The notes under the pieces were generated by a model. It had not been told where the DNA came from. It saw nothing but the letters and a program-made list of their open reading frames with translations, and made no database searches. From an uncultured Thermoleophilia bacterium (lineage in GTDB: Bacteria > Actinomycetota > Thermoleophilia > Solirubrobacterales > 70-9): a stretch of 64,000 nucleotides of DNA. The stretch lies in contig CAWGON010000002.1 of the NCBI GenBank assembly GCA_963824245.1, positions 1,436,887-1,500,886 of the forward strand, written 5' to 3'. A program made the position numbers and the translations under genes. How positions within the stretch are numbered: position 1 is the stretch's first letter; each line of letters begins with the position of its first letter. This document shows, one piece after another, positions 6,288 through 62,013 of the stretch.

Positions 6288-6326
6288 AGTTCCCCTCCAC
6301 CGGCCAGCTTAACCAGGTCCCTCAAG

Positions 6327-6371
6327 CGCGGCAGACCTTTGTCCCGGAAACCGGGACAAAGGTCTGCCGCG
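6327..6371. repeat. 45-bp perfect palindrome (21-bp arms, 3-nt loop), copy 1 of 2
   Basis: cgcggcagacctttgtcccgg-aaa-ccgggacaaaggtctgccgcg. A near-identical copy lies at 49260-49304. Confidence 0.85.
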
Positions 6372-6382
6372 GGCCGTGGGGA

Positions 6383-6389: not shown

Positions 6390-6575
6390 GCCGGCGTAAA
6401 TACGGTCGGTGGTCAAGGGAAGTCCGGTGCGAAGTCCGGCGTGGTCCCGCCACTGTGACCGGGTCAAGGAAGTCGCAGGCGCCTCGCGCGCCGGCCACTG
6501 GGGAGGACACAGATCCCCCGGGAAGGTGCGGCCAACCAACCCCGGAAGCCAGGAGACCTGTCCCCGGCCAGCCAA
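6390..6575 (+). promoter_or_regulatory. Cobalamin (B12) riboswitch
   Basis: ggtcaagggaagtccggtgcgaagtccggcgtggtcccgccactgt matches the conserved core. GCCACTGGGGA...GGGAAGG is also present, and the B12 box gaagccaggagacctgtcc lies at 6545-6563. It sits directly upstream of the ATG at 6604. Confidence 0.85.
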
Positions 6576-6603
6576 TACAACCCTCGAGGAAAGGGTGGCT
6601 TAA

Positions 6604-11559: not shown

Positions 11560-12912
11560 CCCCGCCCCGGCGCCCGCGGCCCGCCCTGCGCGGCGCCGGC
11601 ATCGCCGCCCTGGTCGTCGTCTCGGTCGGGCTCGGCGCTGCTGGTGCCGGGACGCGCCGCGGCCGCCGGCGCCGACAGCGCCAAGCAGTGGCTGGTCTCG
11701 GTCCAGAACGAGGACGGCGGCTTCGGCAGCTCCCCCGAAGACCGGTCGGGGGTCGAGATGACCGCCTGGGCGATGCTGGGGCTGGAGGCCGCCGGCCGCA
11801 ACCCCCACGACGTCGCCCGCGGCGCCAACGACCCGGTCACTTTCCTGCGCGCCCATGTCGGTCAGCTGAGGAACCCCGGCGACCTCTCCCGCACGATCCT
11901 CGCCCTGCTCGGGGCCGGTGCCGACCCGCGCCAGTTCGGCGGCCGCGACCTGGTCGAGGAACTGCGCGGCTTCCGCTTCGACAACGGCTCCTACGAACGC
12001 TGGCCCAACTGGACCGCCTACGCGGTGATCGCCCTGCGGGCCGCCGACTCGGCGGGCGGCACGGAGAAGTCCCTGGAATGGCTGCGCAACGTCCAGAACG
12101 ACGACGGCGGCTGGGGCAACCAACCCGGCAGTCGCAGCGACGCCGAGGCGACCAGCTCGGTCCTGCAGGCGCTCTCGCCCGACTCGAAGGCCTCCGGCCG
12201 CGGGCTGAAGTACCTGCGCGACACCCAGCAGTCCAACGGCGGCTACCGGGTCGGCGGCAACGGCGCGATCAACACCCAGGCGACGGCCTGGGCGATCCAG
12301 GGGATCCTCGCCGCGGGCGGCGACCCCGGCTCCTTCGAGAAGGGCGGCTCGACCCCGTTCGACTACCTCGCCGCCAATCAGGCCGCCGACGGCCACTACC
12401 GCTACTCGAAGTCCAGCGACCAGACCCCGGTCTGGGTGACCGGCCAGGTCCTGGTCGCCGTCTCCCGCGACTACCTCCCGGTGGCCGCGCCGCCGCGCCA
12501 GAAGCAGAGCACGCCGCCGGCCTCCAGCACCGGCACGGCCGCGGCGCTGCCGCCCCTGCCCGCCGCGTCGGTCTCCCCGGCTCCGCAGCCGGAAGCCCCG
12601 CAGATCCCCTCCGGCTCGACCGGCGGCGTCCCGTCCGGCGGCGGCCCGCCCCCGTTGGGATCCGCCGCGCCCGGCGGCTCGACCGGCGCCCTCCCGCCGC
12701 AGGCGGGCCGCGACGAACCCGAGCCCTCGACCGCCGAACCGGAGCCGGAGGTGAGCACCGCGGACAGCGAATTGGCGCAGTCCTCCAGCGACGAGGGCTC
12801 CGAGGCCAGCGTCGGCGGCTCGATCGCCGCCGGGCTGCTCGCCGGCGCCGTCCTCTTCGGCCTCGGCCTGCTCGCCCGCAAGGGTTGGATGCGCTGGCGC
12901 TACGGTCTATAG
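11560..12912 (+). CDS. Prenyltransferase/squalene-cyclase-repeat (alpha/alpha toroid) protein with a Pro-rich linker and C-terminal TM anchor; 5' boundary approximate
   Basis: Four repeats: QWLVSVQNEDGGFG, EWLRNVQNDDGGWG, KYLRDTQQSNGGYR and DYLAANQAADGHYRY. The C-terminus reads ...GGSIAAGLLAGAVLFGLGLLARKGW. It may be fused to the S component, because no stop separates them once frames are corrected. Confidence 0.6.
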   Translation, partial: PRPGARGPPCAAPASPPWSSSRSGSALLVPGRAAAAGADSAKQWLVSVQNEDGGFGSSPEDRSGVEMTAWAMLGLEAAGRNPHDVARGANDPVTFLRAHVGQLRNPGDLSRTILALLGAGADPRQFGGRDLVEELRGFRFDNGSYERWPNWTAYAVIALRAADSAGGTEKSLEWLRNVQNDDGGWGNQPGSRSDAEATSSVLQALSPDSKASGRGLKYLRDTQQSNGGYRVGGNGAINTQATAWAIQGILAAGGDPGSFEKGGSTPFDYLAANQAADGHYRYSKSSDQTPVWVTGQVLVAVSRDYLPVAAPPRQKQSTPPASSTGTAAALPPLPAASVSPAPQPEAPQIPSGSTGGVPSGGGPPPLGSAAPGGSTGALPPQAGRDEPEPSTAEPEPEVSTADSELAQSSSDEGSEASVGGSIAAGLLAGAVLFGLGLLARKGWMRWRYGL

Positions 12913-31072: not shown

Positions 31073-32521
31073 ATGAGGCTGGACGAGCTTGTCGCGGGCG
31101 ACCCCGGGGCCCGGATCCTGGGCGATGCCGGCACCGAGATCGCCGGCCTCGCCTACGACAGCCGCCGGGTCGGTCCCGGGACCCTGTTCTTCTGCGTGCC
31201 GGGGGAGCGGGCCGACGGGCACGAGTTCGCGGCGGCGGCGCTCGCCGCCGGGGCGGCGGCGCTGGTGGTCGAGCGCGAGCTCGACCTGGAGGTCCCGCAA
31301 GCGGTGGTCGCCGACGCGCGGGCGGCGATGGCGCCGGCGGCGGCGCGCTTCTGGGGCGACCCGACCGCGGCGCTGCGGGTGCTCGGCGTGACCGGGACCA
31401 ACGGCAAGACCACCACCGCCTTCCTGGTCCGCGAGATCCTCGAGGCGGCCGGCATCCGGTGCGGCCTGCTGGGGACCGTGAAGCAGGTCGTCGGCGGGGC
31501 GGAGGAGCCGGTCGAGCGGACGACGCCAGAGGCGATCGAGCTGCAGGCGACCTTCCGCCGCATGCTCGACGGCGGCGACGAGGCCTGCGTGATGGAGGTC
31601 TCCTCGCACGCGATGGTCCTGCACCGGGCCGACGCGATCCACTTCGAGGTGGCCCTCTTCACCAACCTGACCCAGGACCACCTCGACTTCCACCGCGACA
31701 TGGAGGACTACTTCCAGGCCAAGCGGCTGCTCTTCGCCGCGGCCGGGGCGCGGGTGCGGATCGTCAACGTCGACGACCCCTACGGGCGGCGCCTGGCCGA
31801 GGAGTTCGAGTGCGTGACCTTCTCGGCCGAGGGCGCGGAGGCCGACTACTCGGCCGGCGGGGTCGAGTTCGACGCCGGCGGGGCGAGCTTCACGGTCAAC
31901 GGCGAGCTGGCGGTGCGGACCGGCCTGCCGGGCCACTTCAACGTCGCCAACGCGCTGGGGGCGCTAGCGGCGGCGCGGGCGCTCGGGGTCGAGGCGGAGA
32001 CCGCGGCCGCCGGCCTGGCCGCGGCGGCGCGGGTGCCGGGGCGCTTCGAGCCGGTCGACGAGGGCCAGGGCTTCGCCGTCCTGGTCGACTACGCGCACAC
32101 CCCCGACTCGATGGAGAACGTCCTGCGGGCCGCCCGCCGGCTCACCGCCGGCCGGCTGATCGCGGTCTTCGGGGCCGGCGGCGACCGCGACCGCGACAAG
32201 CGGCCGAAGATGGGACGGGCCGGGGGGGAGCTCTCCGACCTCGCCGTCGTCACCTCCGACAACCCGCGCTCGGAGAATCCGGCGACGATCGTCGCCGAAG
32301 TCGCCGCCGGGGCGCGCGGGCAGGCCGCCGAGGTCGAGGTCGAGGTCGACCGCCGCGCCGCGATCGCCCTCGCCCTCGCCCGGGCGGCGGATGGCGACAC
32401 CGTGGTGATCGCCGGCAAGGGCCACGAGCAGGGCCAGGAGTTCGGGGGCGGCCGCAAGGTCCCCTTCGACGACCGCGACGTCGCCCGCGAGGAGCTGCGG
32501 GCGCTGGGCGGCGCGCCGTGA
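31073..32521 (+). CDS. murE: UDP-N-acetylmuramoyl-L-alanyl-D-glutamate--2,6-diaminopimelate ligase
   Basis: GVTGTNGKTTT, Mur ligase middle and C-terminal domains, and a DNPR-type motif (TSDNPRSE). Confidence 0.9.
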   Translation: MRLDELVAGDPGARILGDAGTEIAGLAYDSRRVGPGTLFFCVPGERADGHEFAAAALAAGAAALVVERELDLEVPQAVVADARAAMAPAAARFWGDPTAALRVLGVTGTNGKTTTAFLVREILEAAGIRCGLLGTVKQVVGGAEEPVERTTPEAIELQATFRRMLDGGDEACVMEVSSHAMVLHRADAIHFEVALFTNLTQDHLDFHRDMEDYFQAKRLLFAAAGARVRIVNVDDPYGRRLAEEFECVTFSAEGAEADYSAGGVEFDAGGASFTVNGELAVRTGLPGHFNVANALGALAAARALGVEAETAAAGLAAAARVPGRFEPVDEGQGFAVLVDYAHTPDSMENVLRAARRLTAGRLIAVFGAGGDRDRDKRPKMGRAGGELSDLAVVTSDNPRSENPATIVAEVAAGARGQAAEVEVEVDRRAAIALALARAADGDTVVIAGKGHEQGQEFGGGRKVPFDDRDVAREELRALGGAP

Positions 32522-33891
32522 ACCTCTCCGCGGCGGAGATCGCCGCCGCGCTCGGCGCCGAGGTGCTGGCAGAAGGCGCTTCCGGCCCGCCGCGGCGGGC
32601 GTCGATCGACTCCGGCGCCAGCGGCGAGGGCGACCTCTTCTTCGGCCTCCCCGGCGCCAACCGCGACGGCGGCGAGTTCGCCCCGTCCGCGCTCGCCGCC
32701 GGTGCCTGGGGCGTCGTCGTCGGCCCACCATCGCGTGGTTCCTTTGTCAGGCATGAGACGACAAAGGAACCACGCGATGGTGGGGGTGGCTGGGTGTTTG
32801 CGGTGGAGGATCCGCTGAGCTCGATGCAGGCGCTGGCGCGGGCCTGGCGGCGGGCGCTCGGCGCCCGCGCGGTCGGGGTCACCGGCTCGGTCGGCAAGAC
32901 CTCGGTCAAGGACATCGCCCGCTCGATCCTGCCCGGCCGCGTCCACGCCAACCGCGAGAACCTGAACACCGAGATCGGGCTGCCGCTGACCATCCTCGAG
33001 GCGCCCGAGGGCATCGAGACGCTGGTCCTGGAGATGGCGATGCGCGGGCGGGGGCAGATCGCCGAGCTGGGGGAGATCGCCGAGCCCGACGTCGCCGTGA
33101 TCACCAACGTCGGCCCGGTCCACGTCGAGCTGCTCGGCTCGGTGGCGGCGATCGCCGCGGCAAAGGCGGAGATCCTGGCGGCGCTGCCGGCCGGCGGGAC
33201 CGCCGTGGCCCCGGTCGAGGCGGGCGAGCTGGAGCCGCACCTGGAGGCCGCTCCGCGGCTGCTCCGCTTCGGCCCCGGCGGCGACGTGCAGGTGCGCTCC
33301 TCGCGCCTGGTCGAGGGCGTCACCGAGGCCCTGGTCGCGACCCCGCTGGGCGAGCAGCTCTTCCACTTCCCCTTCGCCGAGGCCCACAACCTGACCAACG
33401 CCCTGGCCGCGATCGGCGCCGGCGTCGCCCTCGGCATCGGCCCGGCGGAGATGGCCGACGGCGCTGCGAGCATAGGCTTCTCCCGGTTCCGCGGAGAGCG
33501 CTTGGAGCTCGGCGACGGGATCGTCCTCGTGAACGATTGCTACAACGCCAACCCGGTGTCGATGCGCGCGGCGCTCGACCATCTCGCGACCCTCGGGGCC
33601 CCGCGCACGCTCGCCGTGCTCGGCGAGATGGGCGAGCTCGGCGCCGACACCCCCGCCTACCACCGCGAGGTCGGCGAGCACGCCCGCGCCCACGGCGTCG
33701 ACGTCCTCGTCGGGGTCGGCGAGCCGGCCCGCGACTACGACCCCGACGAGCTCGTCGCCGACCCCGGCGAGGCCGCCGAATGGCTCGCCGCCCAGCTCGA
33801 AGCGGGGGACGCGGTCCTTGTAAAGGGATCGCGCTCGGCCGGCCTGGAGACGGTCGCCGAGCTGCTGCCGGAGCTGCGGGAGGCCGGCTGA
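32518..33891 (+). CDS. murF: UDP-N-acetylmuramoyl-tripeptide--D-alanyl-D-alanine ligase
   Basis: GVTGSVGKTSVKD, NDCYNANPVSM, and synteny. It carries the in-frame palindromic insert at 32724-32784. Confidence 0.9.
   Translation: MNLSAAEIAAALGAEVLAEGASGPPRRASIDSGASGEGDLFFGLPGANRDGGEFAPSALAAGAWGVVVGPPSRGSFVRHETTKEPRDGGGGWVFAVEDPLSSMQALARAWRRALGARAVGVTGSVGKTSVKDIARSILPGRVHANRENLNTEIGLPLTILEAPEGIETLVLEMAMRGRGQIAELGEIAEPDVAVITNVGPVHVELLGSVAAIAAAKAEILAALPAGGTAVAPVEAGELEPHLEAAPRLLRFGPGGDVQVRSSRLVEGVTEALVATPLGEQLFHFPFAEAHNLTNALAAIGAGVALGIGPAEMADGAASIGFSRFRGERLELGDGIVLVNDCYNANPVSMRAALDHLATLGAPRTLAVLGEMGELGADTPAYHREVGEHARAHGVDVLVGVGEPARDYDPDELVADPGEAAEWLAAQLEAGDAVLVKGSRSAGLETVAELLPELREAG
32724..32784. 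repeat. 61-bp palindromic element (25-bp stem, 11-nt loop) lying in frame inside murF
   Basis: cccaccatcgcgtggttcctttgtc-aggcatgagac-gacaaaggaaccacgcgatggtggg. It is translated as PPSRGSFVRHETTKEPRDGG. Confidence 0.85.
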
Positions 33892-41684: not shown

Positions 41685-42764
41685 ATGGAATCCACTTACC
41701 TCGCGGTCATTAAGGTCGTCGGCGCCGGCGGCGGTGGCACCAATGCGGTCAGCCGCATGATCGATGCCGGCATTCGCGGCGTCGAGTTCGTCGCCGTCAA
41801 CACCGACGCGCAGGCTCTGCAGGCCTGTGACGCCGACATCAAGCTCTCGATCGGGCAGGAGCTGACGCGCGGCCTCGGCGCCGGCGGCAACCCCGAGGTC
41901 GGGGCCGGCGCCGCGGCGGAGAGTCGCGACGAGATCAAGGAGGCGCTGAAGGGCGCCGACATGGTCTTCGTCACCGCCGGCGAGGGCGGTGGCACCGGCA
42001 CCGGCTCGGCGCCGGTGATCGCCGAGATCGCCAAGGAAGAGATCGGCGCCCTCACCGTCGGCGCGGTCACCAAGCCCTTCGAGTTCGAGGGCAAACGGCG
42101 GATGCAGCAGGCGCTCGAGGGAATCGAGAAACTGCGCAACAACGTCGACACCCTGATCATCGTCCCGAACGAGAAGCTGCTGCAGGCGGTCGAGCGGCGG
42201 ACCAGCGTCCTCGACGCCTTCCGCCAGGCCGACGACATCCTCCGCCAGGGCGTCCAGGGCATCACCGACCTGATCACGATCCCCGGCCTGATCAACCTCG
42301 ACTTCGCCGACGTGCGCACGATCATGCGCGACGCCGGCTCGGCGCTGATGGGGGTCGGCACCGCCTCCGGCGAGAAACGCGCCCTGGATGCCGCCAAACT
42401 GGCGATCACCTCGCCGCTGATCGAGGAGTCGATCAAAGGCGCGACCGGGATGCTGCTGAACATCACCGGCCCCGAGGACCTCGGCCTGTTCGAGGTCAAC
42501 GAGGCCGCGCAGCTGGTCCAGGCCGAGGCCGACGACAACGCCAACATCATCTTCGGCTCGGTCGTCGACCAGTCGATGGGCGACGAAATCCGGGTCACCG
42601 TGATCGCCACCGGCTTCGAGGGCTTCGAGCTCCTCGCCCGCTCGCCGCAGCGGGTCCGGCGTCGCTACGAGAGCCGCCCGCGGGTCTCGGCGGAGGACAC
42701 CGACATTCGGAAACTCCGGGTTTCGGATGACGACATCGACGTGCCCGGCTTCTTGAAGGAATAG
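41685..42764 (+). CDS. ftsZ: Cell division protein FtsZ
   Basis: [10 protein letters not shown] and [13 protein letters not shown] (tubulin signature), NTDAQAL, and the C-terminal [10 protein letters not shown]. Confidence 0.95.
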
Positions 42765-42782: not shown

Positions 42783-42852
42783 GGGACCGGGTGTGGGTCC
42801 CTCCTGCCGCTGCTTCGCAGGAGTTCGTCAGGAGGGACCCACGCCCGGTCCC
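42783..42852. repeat. Nested inverted repeat downstream of ftsZ and upstream of gcvT (possible dcw terminator)
   Basis: gggaccgggtgtgggtccctcctg (42783-42806) pairs with caggagggacccacgcccggtccc (42829-42852) with 1 mismatch. Each arm is also itself a GGGACC/GGTCCC hairpin. Confidence 0.55.
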
Positions 42853-44412: not shown

Positions 44413-45836
<1,424 letters not shown>

Positions 45837-45837
<1 letters not shown>

Positions 45838-49182: not shown

Positions 49183-49259
49183 CAGCGCATCACCTACCCG
49201 GATTGTTCCAGTCAATCCTCGGCTGCCCTGCCCGCCGTCGCCGGGCGAGAGCCATCTTG

Positions 49260-49304
49260 CGCGGCAGACCTTTGTTCCGGTATCCGGGACAAAGGTCTGC
49301 CGCG
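49260..49304. repeat. 45-bp palindrome, copy 2 of 2 (one mismatch in the stem)
   Basis: cgcggcagacctttgttccgg-tat-ccgggacaaaggtctgccgcg. It lies in the divergent ku/trpS intergenic region. Confidence 0.85.
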
Positions 49305-49315
49305 CGCGGCGTCAA

Positions 49316-52420: not shown

Positions 52421-53385
52421 GCCCTCCACGCGCATCCAGCTCGCGCAGGATCGCGTCGAGCACCAGCTCCGGCTCGCGTTCGACCTGGCGCCAGGTGGGT
52501 CTGAGGGTCTTGTATCCGGCGCGCATCAGTTCGCGATCGCGCCGGCGATCGCGCTCGAAGGCGATCTCGGTGCCGTGGTGGCGGCGGCTGTCGGCCTCGA
52601 CTACGAAGCGGTGGTCGGGCCAGAGCAGGTCGACCTCGAGCCGGCCACCGGGGGTCTGGACGGGGGCGTTGACCTGGGGCGCCGGCAGGTCGGTCGCCGC
52701 GAGCAGCGGCAACAGCCGCGCCTCGAACGGGCTGCGGAGCCGCGCTTTCGGCACCAGCTCGGTCGCCGCCCGCCACTCGGCCGCGATCGCCAGCACCAGC
52801 GGCGTCCCCGGCCGCGGTCGCTGCCGCGCCGCCGCTTCGACCGCATCGAGGTCGAGCGCCCCATCCGCCGCCGCCCGCTCGAACCCGGCCCGCAGCGTCC
52901 GCCCCCGCACCGTTCCCGCGAGATCGACCAGCGTCCGCGCCGGGCTGGTGCAGGGGATCCCGTCGGCCGACCCGCGCTCCGCCGGCGTCGGGACCGGCAC
53001 GCCATGGGCGCGGACCCCGTCGATCTTGCGGCCCCGGCCCGGCGCCGAGGCGATCGCGTCGACCACGACCGGCGCCCGGTCCGCCAGTCCCAGCAGGACC
53101 GCGGCGCTGCGGTGGGAGACGACGCTTCCGTCCCCGCAGGCCAGCACCGCGGCCATCATCCGCCCCCGCTCGCCGATCCGGCCGTGCCCGACCGCGAAGA
53201 CGCCCCGAAAGACGGGGTGCAGGCGCCCGGCGGCCCGGGCTCTGTCGATCGCGTCGTCGCTCAGTCCAAGTGCCCGCAACTGATGGCGAGAGACGACACC
53301 GTGCTGGCTCTCGGCGAGCTCTGCGACCCGCCAGCCGATTCCGCTGTTCCTTTTCCGCGCTATCCGCGGATAAGGCGCAGCGCAT
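52368..53385 (-). CDS. DUF559 endonuclease-domain protein (Vsr-like fold) with an N-terminal winged-helix-like region; one frame break near 53325
   Basis: LAESQHGVVSRHQLRALGLSDDAIDRARAAGRLHPVFRGVFAVGH and the C-terminal EVDLLWPDHRFVVEADSRRHHG...RDRRRDRELMRAGYKTLRPTW. Confidence 0.65.
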
Positions 53386-53411
53386 CGAGTTCCTCCCCCG
53401 GCTTTGGGAAG

Positions 53412-61953: not shown

Positions 61954-61960
61954 CCTTCGT

Positions 61961-62006
61961 CGTTTCCGACTTTTTGGGGCCTATGGCGCCCATAAAGTCG
62001 GAAACG
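61961..62006. terminator. Bidirectional hairpin between convergent metK and the bPH_2 gene
   Basis: cgtttccgacttt (61961-61973) pairs with aaagtcggaaacg (61994-62006). The inner bases pair partially and there is a short T-run in the loop region. Confidence 0.5.
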
Positions 62007-62013
62007 CGCGGGT

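Follow-up and report, generated by a model that had tools for sequence, protein, structure and literature searches.

A dispersed palindromic repeat, old in murF, keeps its hairpin while its sequence turns over in uncultured Solirubrobacterales

We conclude that the palindromic element found inside murF of an uncultured Thermoleophilia bacterium is a member of a dispersed palindromic repeat that is confined to an uncultured clade of Solirubrobacterales. The element occupies positions 32724..32784 of the stretch of DNA analyzed here, referred to below as the window (64,000 nucleotides of contig CAWGON010000002.1, assembly GCA_963824245.1, forward strand positions 1,436,887 to 1,500,886), and has no assigned strand. 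The murF copy is old, clade-wide, and fixed in position, not recent or specific to this genome, and it is the palindrome itself that has been preserved at the site, whereas the peptide and the nucleotide sequence have both turned over. In the whole of the reading that we favor, i.e., a dispersed palindromic repeat that is old in murF, is kept palindromic by templating at the level of the DNA, and is selfish or neutral, we place moderate confidence.

The two arms of the murF hairpin (32724-32748 and 32760-32784) are 25 nt each, 100% complementary, and separated by 11 nt, just as the preliminary description had reported (25-bp stem, 11-nt loop). From the outside in, the element consists of a C-rich tail (CCCACC), a 7-nt outer stem (ATCGCGT), a 12-nt core (GGTTCCTTTGTC, pairing with GACAAAGGAACC), and the loop AGGCATGAGAC; the second half is the mirror image of the first and ends in GGTGGG. 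Folded as single-stranded DNA, the region reaches -35.5 kcal/mol, compared to -13.1 ± 2.3 kcal/mol in shuffled sequences (z = -9.6), and none of 200 dinucleotide-preserving shuffles was as good. A covariance model built from murF hairpins, which was run on the window and on 0.93 Mb of other dcw-cluster loci, matches the element at 32728-32780 (45.7 bits, E = 9e-9). The only argument for regarding the hairpin as a chance palindrome or an assembly artifact is the high G+C content, which favors spurious stems. Against this stand the fold statistics, the overrepresentation of the 12-mer core in the window (4 occurrences versus 0.10 expected), and the presence of the same hairpin site in dozens of independent assemblies, and we consider the probability of such an origin negligible.

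The host gene (32518..33891, plus strand) encodes UDP-MurNAc-tripeptide--D-Ala-D-Ala ligase, as indicated by its Pfam domains (Mur_ligase_M, 2.9e-32; Mur_ligase_C, 1.4e-19) and by its best match among solved structures, E. coli MurF (1gg4, E = 9.5e-44). The frame is open across the hairpin, which is translated as GPPSRGSFVRHETTKEPRDGGGG; MurF residues ~70-89 (PPSRGSFVRHETTKEPRDGG) are encoded by the element. The opposite strand is also stop-free, within a minus-strand open reading frame (ORF) at 32250..33473 that reads ...PSRGSFVVSCLTKEPRDGG... across the element, and its peptide (SRGSFVVSCLTKEPRDG) is similar. Both statements had been made in the preliminary description and are confirmed, as is everything else that it had given as fact. 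When the protein is aligned with MurF of E. coli and T. maritima, these two have a gap opposite the segment, between the GAWGVVV and WVFAVEDPL strands. An AlphaFold2 model built with 111 orthologues as input (mean predicted local distance difference test score [pLDDT] of 85, predicted template modeling score of 0.80) locates the insert at the end of the N-terminal domain, with residues 78-88 in coil, at a pLDDT of <50 and with no secondary structure, between strands 65-68 and 92-95. According to the model, the insert is a tolerated, disordered surface loop.

The segment is not found throughout the phylum, which had been set beforehand as a test of whether it is an ancestral loop. In 121 MurF representatives from outside the clade (≤72% identity), the site holds a short variable loop (mode, 13 to 20 amino acids [aa]) without the segment, and the sole exception (P0121) is the nearest of these proteins. 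The claim that this part of MurF is normally a short variable loop agrees with both the outside-clade proteins and the E. coli and T. maritima alignments. The 120 closest MurF proteins (76 to 87% identity) are about as long as the query, and nearly all have the segment at this site. Among 191 distinct clade segments, ~20 (about 10%) are short loops without the insert (xPEHAAGLxGA), 22 are canonical (2 of those being tandem doubles), and the remainder are hairpins that have decayed or are private; the orthologues with a double copy at this site are P0071 and P0084. Because it is absent outside the clade, the segment is lineage specific, as an insertion would be. The proposal of an in-frame insertion in murF therefore holds insofar as the segment is lineage specific and belongs to a repeat family, but the insert is common to most of the clade and is neither recent nor genome specific.

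Most orthologues at 70 to 87% MurF identity have a hairpin centered on the same nucleotide, with stems that differ and arms that change together. Across 80 metagenomic loci with an orthologous murF, a 12- to 25-bp hairpin occurs in ~46 of 69 analyzable genes, again with widely different stems, and in 38 of the 46 the center of symmetry lies exactly 32 nt past the GAWGxVV anchor. This fixed distance settles the positional homology of the site. Most variant arms are private to murF orthologues according to an exact 12-mer search, which is too strict to decide between stem replacement and evolution in place. A neighbor-joining tree of MurF with the segment masked is star-like, with segment types and empty sites interspersed, and does not discriminate between a single gain followed by losses and multiple gains.

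Other sites in the same gene cluster also carry hairpins. In six other lineages, MurE has an in-frame insert of ~16 aa (e.g., GPTGRKRRLYRRFRPVG) that derives from a different hairpin, GCCGACGGGCC..GGCCCGTCGGC (L137:9338-9386, L179:9347-9401, L187:9336-9388, L158:107-155, L188:739-787, and L184:6497-6541). MurE of the window lacks it (..FTVN-GELAVRTGLPG..; equivalent site at ~31840-31870), which makes this a presence/absence difference at a second Mur ligase. An orthologous genic hairpin site, with the peptide ..AVVPGMRG.., lies 4 to 7 kb downstream of murF in the dcw cluster (L143:17165-17217, L131:6963-7015, L134:12361-12413, and L166:7952-8004).

The evidence that the palindrome is what persists comes from covariation of the two arms. 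We aligned 44 distinct hairpins without gaps on their centers and scored a 20-bp stem. Of the cells of this stem alignment, 87.6% are paired, compared to 60.5% when partners are shuffled and 37 to 45% in slid registers. Cells changed on both sides number 200, versus 57 ± 6 in shuffles (none of the 500 reached 200), and the covariation score is 0.62, versus 0.16 in shuffles. Pairs with changes on both sides amount to 18 of 20, versus 16.1 ± 1.2 (54 of 500 shuffles reach 18). Because these 44 sequences had been chosen for having a hairpin, the test was repeated without preselection on every orthologue whose segment is ≥54 nt long (55 in total), with the center set by the protein anchor alone. 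Watson-Crick pairing was 71.7%, compared to 42.9 ± 1.2% in shuffles and 26 to 33% in slid registers.

The same covariation is visible in the protein, where the two halves of the MurF segment change together as reverse complements (RGSF/KEPR, WRSSF/KDER, LRQSF/KDCR, RLSF/KLNR, and VRRTF/KVRR). This bears on the idea of an adaptive, lineage-specific MurF loop selected as protein, for which the palindromic DNA would be incidental. The segment is indeed in frame and of similar length in most clade members. However, its hypervariable sequence argues against a selected peptide, and its halves co-vary as nucleotide reverse complements and not as a structural motif. Moreover, the modeled loop has low pLDDT and no secondary structure, the same peptide (RGSFV..TKEPR) occurs in unrelated proteins, and some orthologues lack the insert. 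We regard this explanation as very improbable.

A G.T mismatch is a tolerated wobble in sense RNA, and A.C corresponds to a wobble only in antisense RNA. Among the non-Watson-Crick stem cells, there are 28 G.T and 35 A.C, and thus no excess of wobble pairs; as G.T is not more common than A.C, the constraint appears equal on both strands. The loops also occur in both orientations. In loci L122 and L140, the stems differ at 1 of 34 positions and the loops (GATAG and CTATC) are exact reverse complements. In L131, a genic copy 5.4 kb away from the murF hairpin has the same stem and the opposite loop (GTATG, versus CATAC in murF), and loop peptides of both orientations (P-D-S-G in 32 cases and P-L-S-G in 20) are each found within at least three stem types. 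Stems also vary in extent, with 25-bp arms in the murF copy of the window versus the ~20-bp stem of the family. Multibase compensatory change, stem extension, and loop inversion have been described as footprints of template switching in replication (PMC8794818). The equal covariation on both strands, the lack of a wobble excess, and the repeated loop flips point to maintenance at the level of the DNA rather than of an mRNA structure or a peptide.

We nevertheless considered selection on RNA. The murF hairpin could be a selected mRNA structure of the dcw operon, its covariation arising from selection for RNA pairing; it might make ribosomes pause where the N-terminal domain of MurF meets the central one, or it might be a site of RNase processing or stability that tunes the expression of murF and mraY. 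The strong covariation at one fixed position across a deep clade, the great stability of the hairpin, and the location of several genic copies of the family between protein domains (isoleucyl-tRNA synthetase [IleRS] and a UvrD-like protein) are all as expected of such a role. The absence of a sense-strand G.U preference (28 G.T versus 35 A.C) and the occurrence of both loop orientations are not, and the same kind of hairpin is found between genes, between convergent stops, and in divergent promoter regions. In addition, ~10% of orthologues lack the insert and it is decayed in others, and an Rfam scan of the window gave a sole match, a cobalamin riboswitch at 6393-6579, and no family for the hairpin. 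With these points weighed, an mRNA function is quite unlikely. As for an intrinsic terminator, the murF hairpin is followed by GGGTGGCTGGGTG, which has no T run, and it lies inside an ORF.

Strand-symmetric covariation and perfect Watson-Crick stems would also be expected if the hairpins were functional chromosomal DNA elements, e.g., extruded hairpins or cruciforms bound by a host protein or used in replication or repair. Repetitive extragenic palindromic (REP) sequences and bacterial interspersed mosaic elements (BIMEs), for instance, are bound by gyrase and integration host factor. A T-A/T-A step and the loop center GGATAGC are conserved, positions are long-lived at two or more unrelated sites, and doublets of the repeat resemble BIME clusters. 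On the other hand, neither a cognate protein nor a positional logic was found, members occur in many different contexts, and copies are lost or decayed in some lineages. The covariation of half-sites also speaks against a simple operator for a dimeric protein, a candidate that we rejected because half-sites co-vary rather than being conserved. Overall, we judge a chromosomal DNA function to be unlikely.

The preliminary description had also set the existence of further copies as a test, and these are plentiful. There is a second copy in the window, and a scan of one genome per species with the pattern GGTTCCTTTGT-N9-15-ACAAAGGAACC recovered at least 112 stretches with the exact core. Among the matches listed, those with the exact core are nearly all in metagenome-assembled genomes (MAGs) labeled Solirubrobacterales, Conexibacteraceae, or "Actinomycetes," and those with a 13-nt spacing are all in ~35 uncultured MAGs of these labels, with at least 6 to 8 per MAG. 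The unit is a single hairpin of 49 to 63 nt. Its consensus starts on the outside with a tail of ~7 nt that is weakly C-rich and continues inward with an outer stem of 7 nt, the invariant 12-nt core, and a loop of ~11 nt, followed by the mirror image with a G-rich tail at the end. The outer stem varies (GTTCCGT, ATCGCGT, AAGTCGT, GTTGCGT, and ATCCCGT), the loop center is often TATAG or GATAG, and the flank consensus, [A/G][T/A][T/C]NCGT-GGTTCC..., has no 5' GTAG tetranucleotide beside the hairpin. Dispersal is evident from 25 pairs of 49-nt units that differ at ≤3 positions and have unrelated flanks; near-identical units with unrelated flanks also occur within one MAG (L023/L035 and L008/L046/L048). 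Tandem doublets, 70 to 72 nt apart, are present at six loci (L004, L020, L032, L047, L090, and L094), and the L032 doublet lies inside FolP, where it is read through as two RGSFV..TKEP repeats.

Some palindromes depart from this pattern. One canonical copy (L064:826-874) has perfect arms of ~31 nt (CCCTCCTTCCCTTTCCAT-GGTTCC...), far past the family consensus, which fits growth of the palindrome by templating. Palindromes with the same 11-nt core occur in low-GC genomes, i.e., Clostridia/Lachnospiraceae MAGs (L017, L029, L042, L074, and L111), with GGGGAC/GTCCCC outer stems and spacers of 11 to 12 nt. These appear to be a separate Firmicutes repeat family, and may have the core in common by coincidence.

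Among the copies listed, ~73% of canonical copies lie outside ORFs, and many of these abut start or stop codons. In several canonical copies (L005, L013, L026, L031, L043, L052, L054, L059, L075, L080, L112, and others), the right arm provides AAAGGA 8 nt before an ATG to which the end of the element gives rise (..ACGCG-ATG). CCUUU in the left arm, which would pair with this AAAGGA, is similar to an anti-Shine-Dalgarno sequence. We dropped a Shine-Dalgarno/anti-Shine-Dalgarno role, as the base after ..GAT is G in 17 cases versus another base in 19, which is not significant, and also because no melting would be expected of stems at -35 kcal/mol or beyond.

The remaining 31 of 114 canonical copies listed (~27%) are inside ORFs, as assigned by a self-trained gene caller using codon log-odds and G+C content at third codon positions (GC3), and most have a GC3 of >0.9 on both sides. 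Hosts identified by Pfam include an MMPL transporter, a HAD hydrolase, FolP, a UvrD/AddA-type helicase-nuclease, IleRS, and a phosphodiesterase, in addition to MurF and GcvPA. The IleRS copy lies between the catalytic and anticodon-binding domains, and the UvrD-like copy between the N- and C-terminal domains of its protein. Reading frames of the 31 genic copies are distributed 24:5:2, corresponding to RGSFV..TKEPR (24), VPLS..QRNH (5), and RFLC..DKGT (2); this bias is strong. The suggestion that the element behaves like Rickettsia palindromic elements (RPEs) is thus borne out by in-frame copies in unrelated housekeeping genes, mostly read as RGSFV..TKEPR. A further argument, that insertion in either orientation gives a stop-free peptide, is correct in that the frames are open but carries no weight. 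Intergenic copies are stop-free in 73 to 91% of readings, and ~77% is expected by chance for 16 codons of 73%-GC DNA, so openness is no evidence of adaptation, and we rejected that idea.

The second canonical copy of the window, with the same 12-nt core (45765..45831, no assigned strand), is in frame near the 3' end of gcvPA (44413..45837, plus strand; Pfam GDC-P, 1.8e-116). Its best stem (45776-45820) has 20 of 21 pairs and a 3-nt loop, it is translated as SPSRGSFVVPRTTKEPRVGG, and it ends 17 nt before the stop codon, which overlaps the gcvPB start (ATG at 45837). Orthologous GcvPA proteins either end early (..AAEAVTV*, 454 to 457 aa) or have a C-terminal extension whose halves co-vary (RGSF/KEPx, RGAF/KAPx, and RGDF/KSPx). 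In four complete MAG chromosomes, the gcvPA site is filled with three different stems (L193-L195) or empty (L196), and the gcvPA-gcvPB stop/start overlap is preserved in all four. The covariance model found the murF copy and missed this one (E ≤ 0.1, default filters), and model-based counts are therefore lower bounds.

Four extra members in the window, none assigned a strand, are all intergenic, leaving the murF and gcvPA copies as its genic members. All four belong to the wider hairpin class, and two have the same stem subtype. One (CGCGGCAGACCTTTGTCCCGG AAA CCGGGACAAAGGTCTGCCGCG, 21-bp stem; 6323..6375; 55.6 bits, E = 1.7e-11) lies 18 nt upstream of the cobalamin riboswitch (6393-6579, plus strand; RF00174, 66 bits, E = 4e-14). 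The other (22-bp stem, loop TAT; 49256..49308; 47.8 bits, E = 2.4e-9) lies between divergent genes, 22 nt before the start of the plus-strand gene. The two weaker members are TTCCGCTGTTCCTTTTCCGCG CTATC CGCGGATAAGGCGCAGCG (53336..53388; 28.7 bits, E = 5e-4), between divergent genes, and CGTTTCCGACTTTTTGGG..CCCATAAAGTCGGAAACG (61957..62010; 25.6 bits, E = 0.004), with a convergent stop codon 4 nt away on either side. In the other dcw-cluster loci, whose sequence had not been chosen for the core, the model found ~12 non-murF members. Of 16 non-murF model matches, 5 are read through in genes.

Based on these observations, we propose that a copy entered the DNA for a short, variable surface loop of MurF, in frame, in the ancestor of the clade. 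Since then, its translation would have given a disordered loop flanked by the last two strands of the N-terminal domain, and MurF would tolerate it at this place just as FolP, IleRS, GcvPA, and others presumably tolerate their own in-frame copies. The arms of the element may have been kept matched by templating of one arm on the other, through template switches inside the hairpin when the DNA is replicated or repaired. We infer this mechanism from its footprints, because the arms change together, do so equally on both strands, and the loops flip. An origin of the murF copy by insertion is the probable one, and the element seems to have no host function, behaving as selfish or neutral DNA, much as Rickettsia palindromic elements do within genes and REP elements do between them.

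Several points weigh against this reading. Covariation would also be expected if the hairpin were under selection, be it as DNA or as RNA. The canonical core is unchanged in several murF lineages scattered on the poorly resolved tree and also at other orthologous sites, and this persistence is not explained by neutral drift in place, which suggests a sequence constraint or conversion between copies; conversion may operate until copies have diverged too far. Two adjacent T-A pairs and the loop center GGATAGC are nearly invariant, which hints at constraint at the level of sequence. No insertion event was caught, and no presence/absence difference was seen between very close relatives. Direct repeats of 2 to 9 nt, as would be left by target-site duplication, are no more common at element boundaries than at control offsets, and no transposase or REP-associated tyrosine transposase (RAYT) recurs among 466 proteins within 2.5 kb of copies, where only housekeeping families recur. 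Finally, the assignment of copies as genic or intergenic depends on the crude gene caller. In a bolder reading, the DNA hairpins are themselves a conserved heritable unit, fixed at exact positions in murF, murE, folP, ileS, and gcvPA through deep divergence. Either a templating process from arm to arm, dedicated to this task or of unusual efficiency, would maintain them, or they would be under selection as signals in the chromosomal DNA; the peptide would be incidental. We offer this tentatively, as a possible but not a likely account.

Other palindromes in the window were noted in passing. One at 42793-42842 (GTGGGTCCCTCCTGCCG ... CGTCAGGAGGGACCCAC), 29 nt downstream of a plus-strand gene, is of a different family, whose other members (L115:20673-20740, L179:8426-8503, and L191:8474-8549 and 12352-12429) have arms of up to 30 nt and a common 16-nt loop. 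At 41872-41917, inside a gene, there is a GC-rich inverted repeat of 14 to 16 bp with an 18- to 20-nt loop that recurs at orthologous positions (L116:20822, L133:18829, L144:19687, and L163:16242); it is likely to be a coding motif that is conserved, not one of the hairpin class.

To our knowledge, palindromic "selfish DNA" that sits in frame in essential genes has mostly been viewed as peculiar to Rickettsia and a few other host-restricted bacteria with relaxed selection. The same behavior is now seen in soil Actinomycetota that are abundant, free-living, and very rich in G+C, where the palindrome at orthologous coding sites is conserved while the nucleotides and the encoded peptide turn over. 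We found no literature description of such elements for Solirubrobacterales or Thermoleophilia, and the preliminary description, too, was aware of none for this lineage. With dozens of orthologues per site, several independent sites, strand-symmetric covariation, and repeated loop inversions, the repeat is a natural system for asking whether hairpin covariation can come from template switching instead of selection, a question with direct bearing on the use of covariation as evidence for functional RNA structure. The inserts also mark the clade, and both alignments of proteins and screens for RNA structure can be misled by them.

Among known systems, the closest in behavior are the RPEs, of which there are about ten families in AT-rich, obligate intracellular Alphaproteobacteria. 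As summarized in PMC10969869 and PMC1779305, RPEs (Ogata et al. 2000, Science) are dispersed, lie in intergenic DNA as well as in frame within housekeeping genes that are unrelated to one another, and encode a family-specific peptide. They are 100 to 150 bp long and belong to the Rickettsiales, and RPE-7, in PheT of all Rickettsia, is an ancient clade-wide insertion (PMC1779305). The repeat described here likewise consists of dispersed palindromes that lie between genes and unusually often in frame in housekeeping genes, some of its insertions are ancient and clade-wide, and no transposase is known for either. In contrast, its unit is a single hairpin of 49 to 63 nt in ~73%-GC soil Actinomycetota known only from metagenomes, and its palindrome is actively kept up at orthologous sites, with paired arm changes and loop inversions, for which we found no such report in RPEs. 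Given the differences in length and G+C content, the two are very unlikely to be homologous in sequence.

The architecture is closer to that of other repeats. REP sequences are imperfect palindromes of ~20 to 40 nt with a conserved 5' GTAG, are extragenic by definition, and, like the REP doublets forming hairpins (REPINs), are mobilized by RAYT (Y1/HUH) transposases. With REP/BIME, the repeat shares a single GC-rich hairpin unit, the lack of terminal inverted repeats and target-site duplication, a mostly extragenic location near gene ends, doublets, and lineage specificity of the family; it differs in having no GTAG and no RAYT-like neighbor within 2.5 kb, and in that ~27% of the copies listed are intragenic and translated. 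Transposable elements of the miniature inverted-repeat type (MITEs) have terminal inverted repeats around a nonpalindromic interior, and target-site duplications. In-frame intragenic copies are known for bacterial MITEs, including ERIC, Coxiella QMITE1, and cyanobacterial MITEs (PMC10969869 and PMC5896051), so both are small, nonautonomous repeats able to fuse in frame with host ORFs, but the repeat studied here is palindromic from end to end, its conserved part lies in the center, and it has no duplication above control. The hairpins that Monttinen and Loytynoja (2022; PMC8794818) attributed to template switching lie in RNA genes, such as those for rRNA and microRNAs. Ours resemble them in multibase compensation, perfect stems, stem extension, and exact loop inversions, whereas they lie within protein-coding sequence, belong to a repeat family, and point to the mechanism through footprints only. 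Overall, the element behaves like RPEs and is built like REP, and it is a member of neither.

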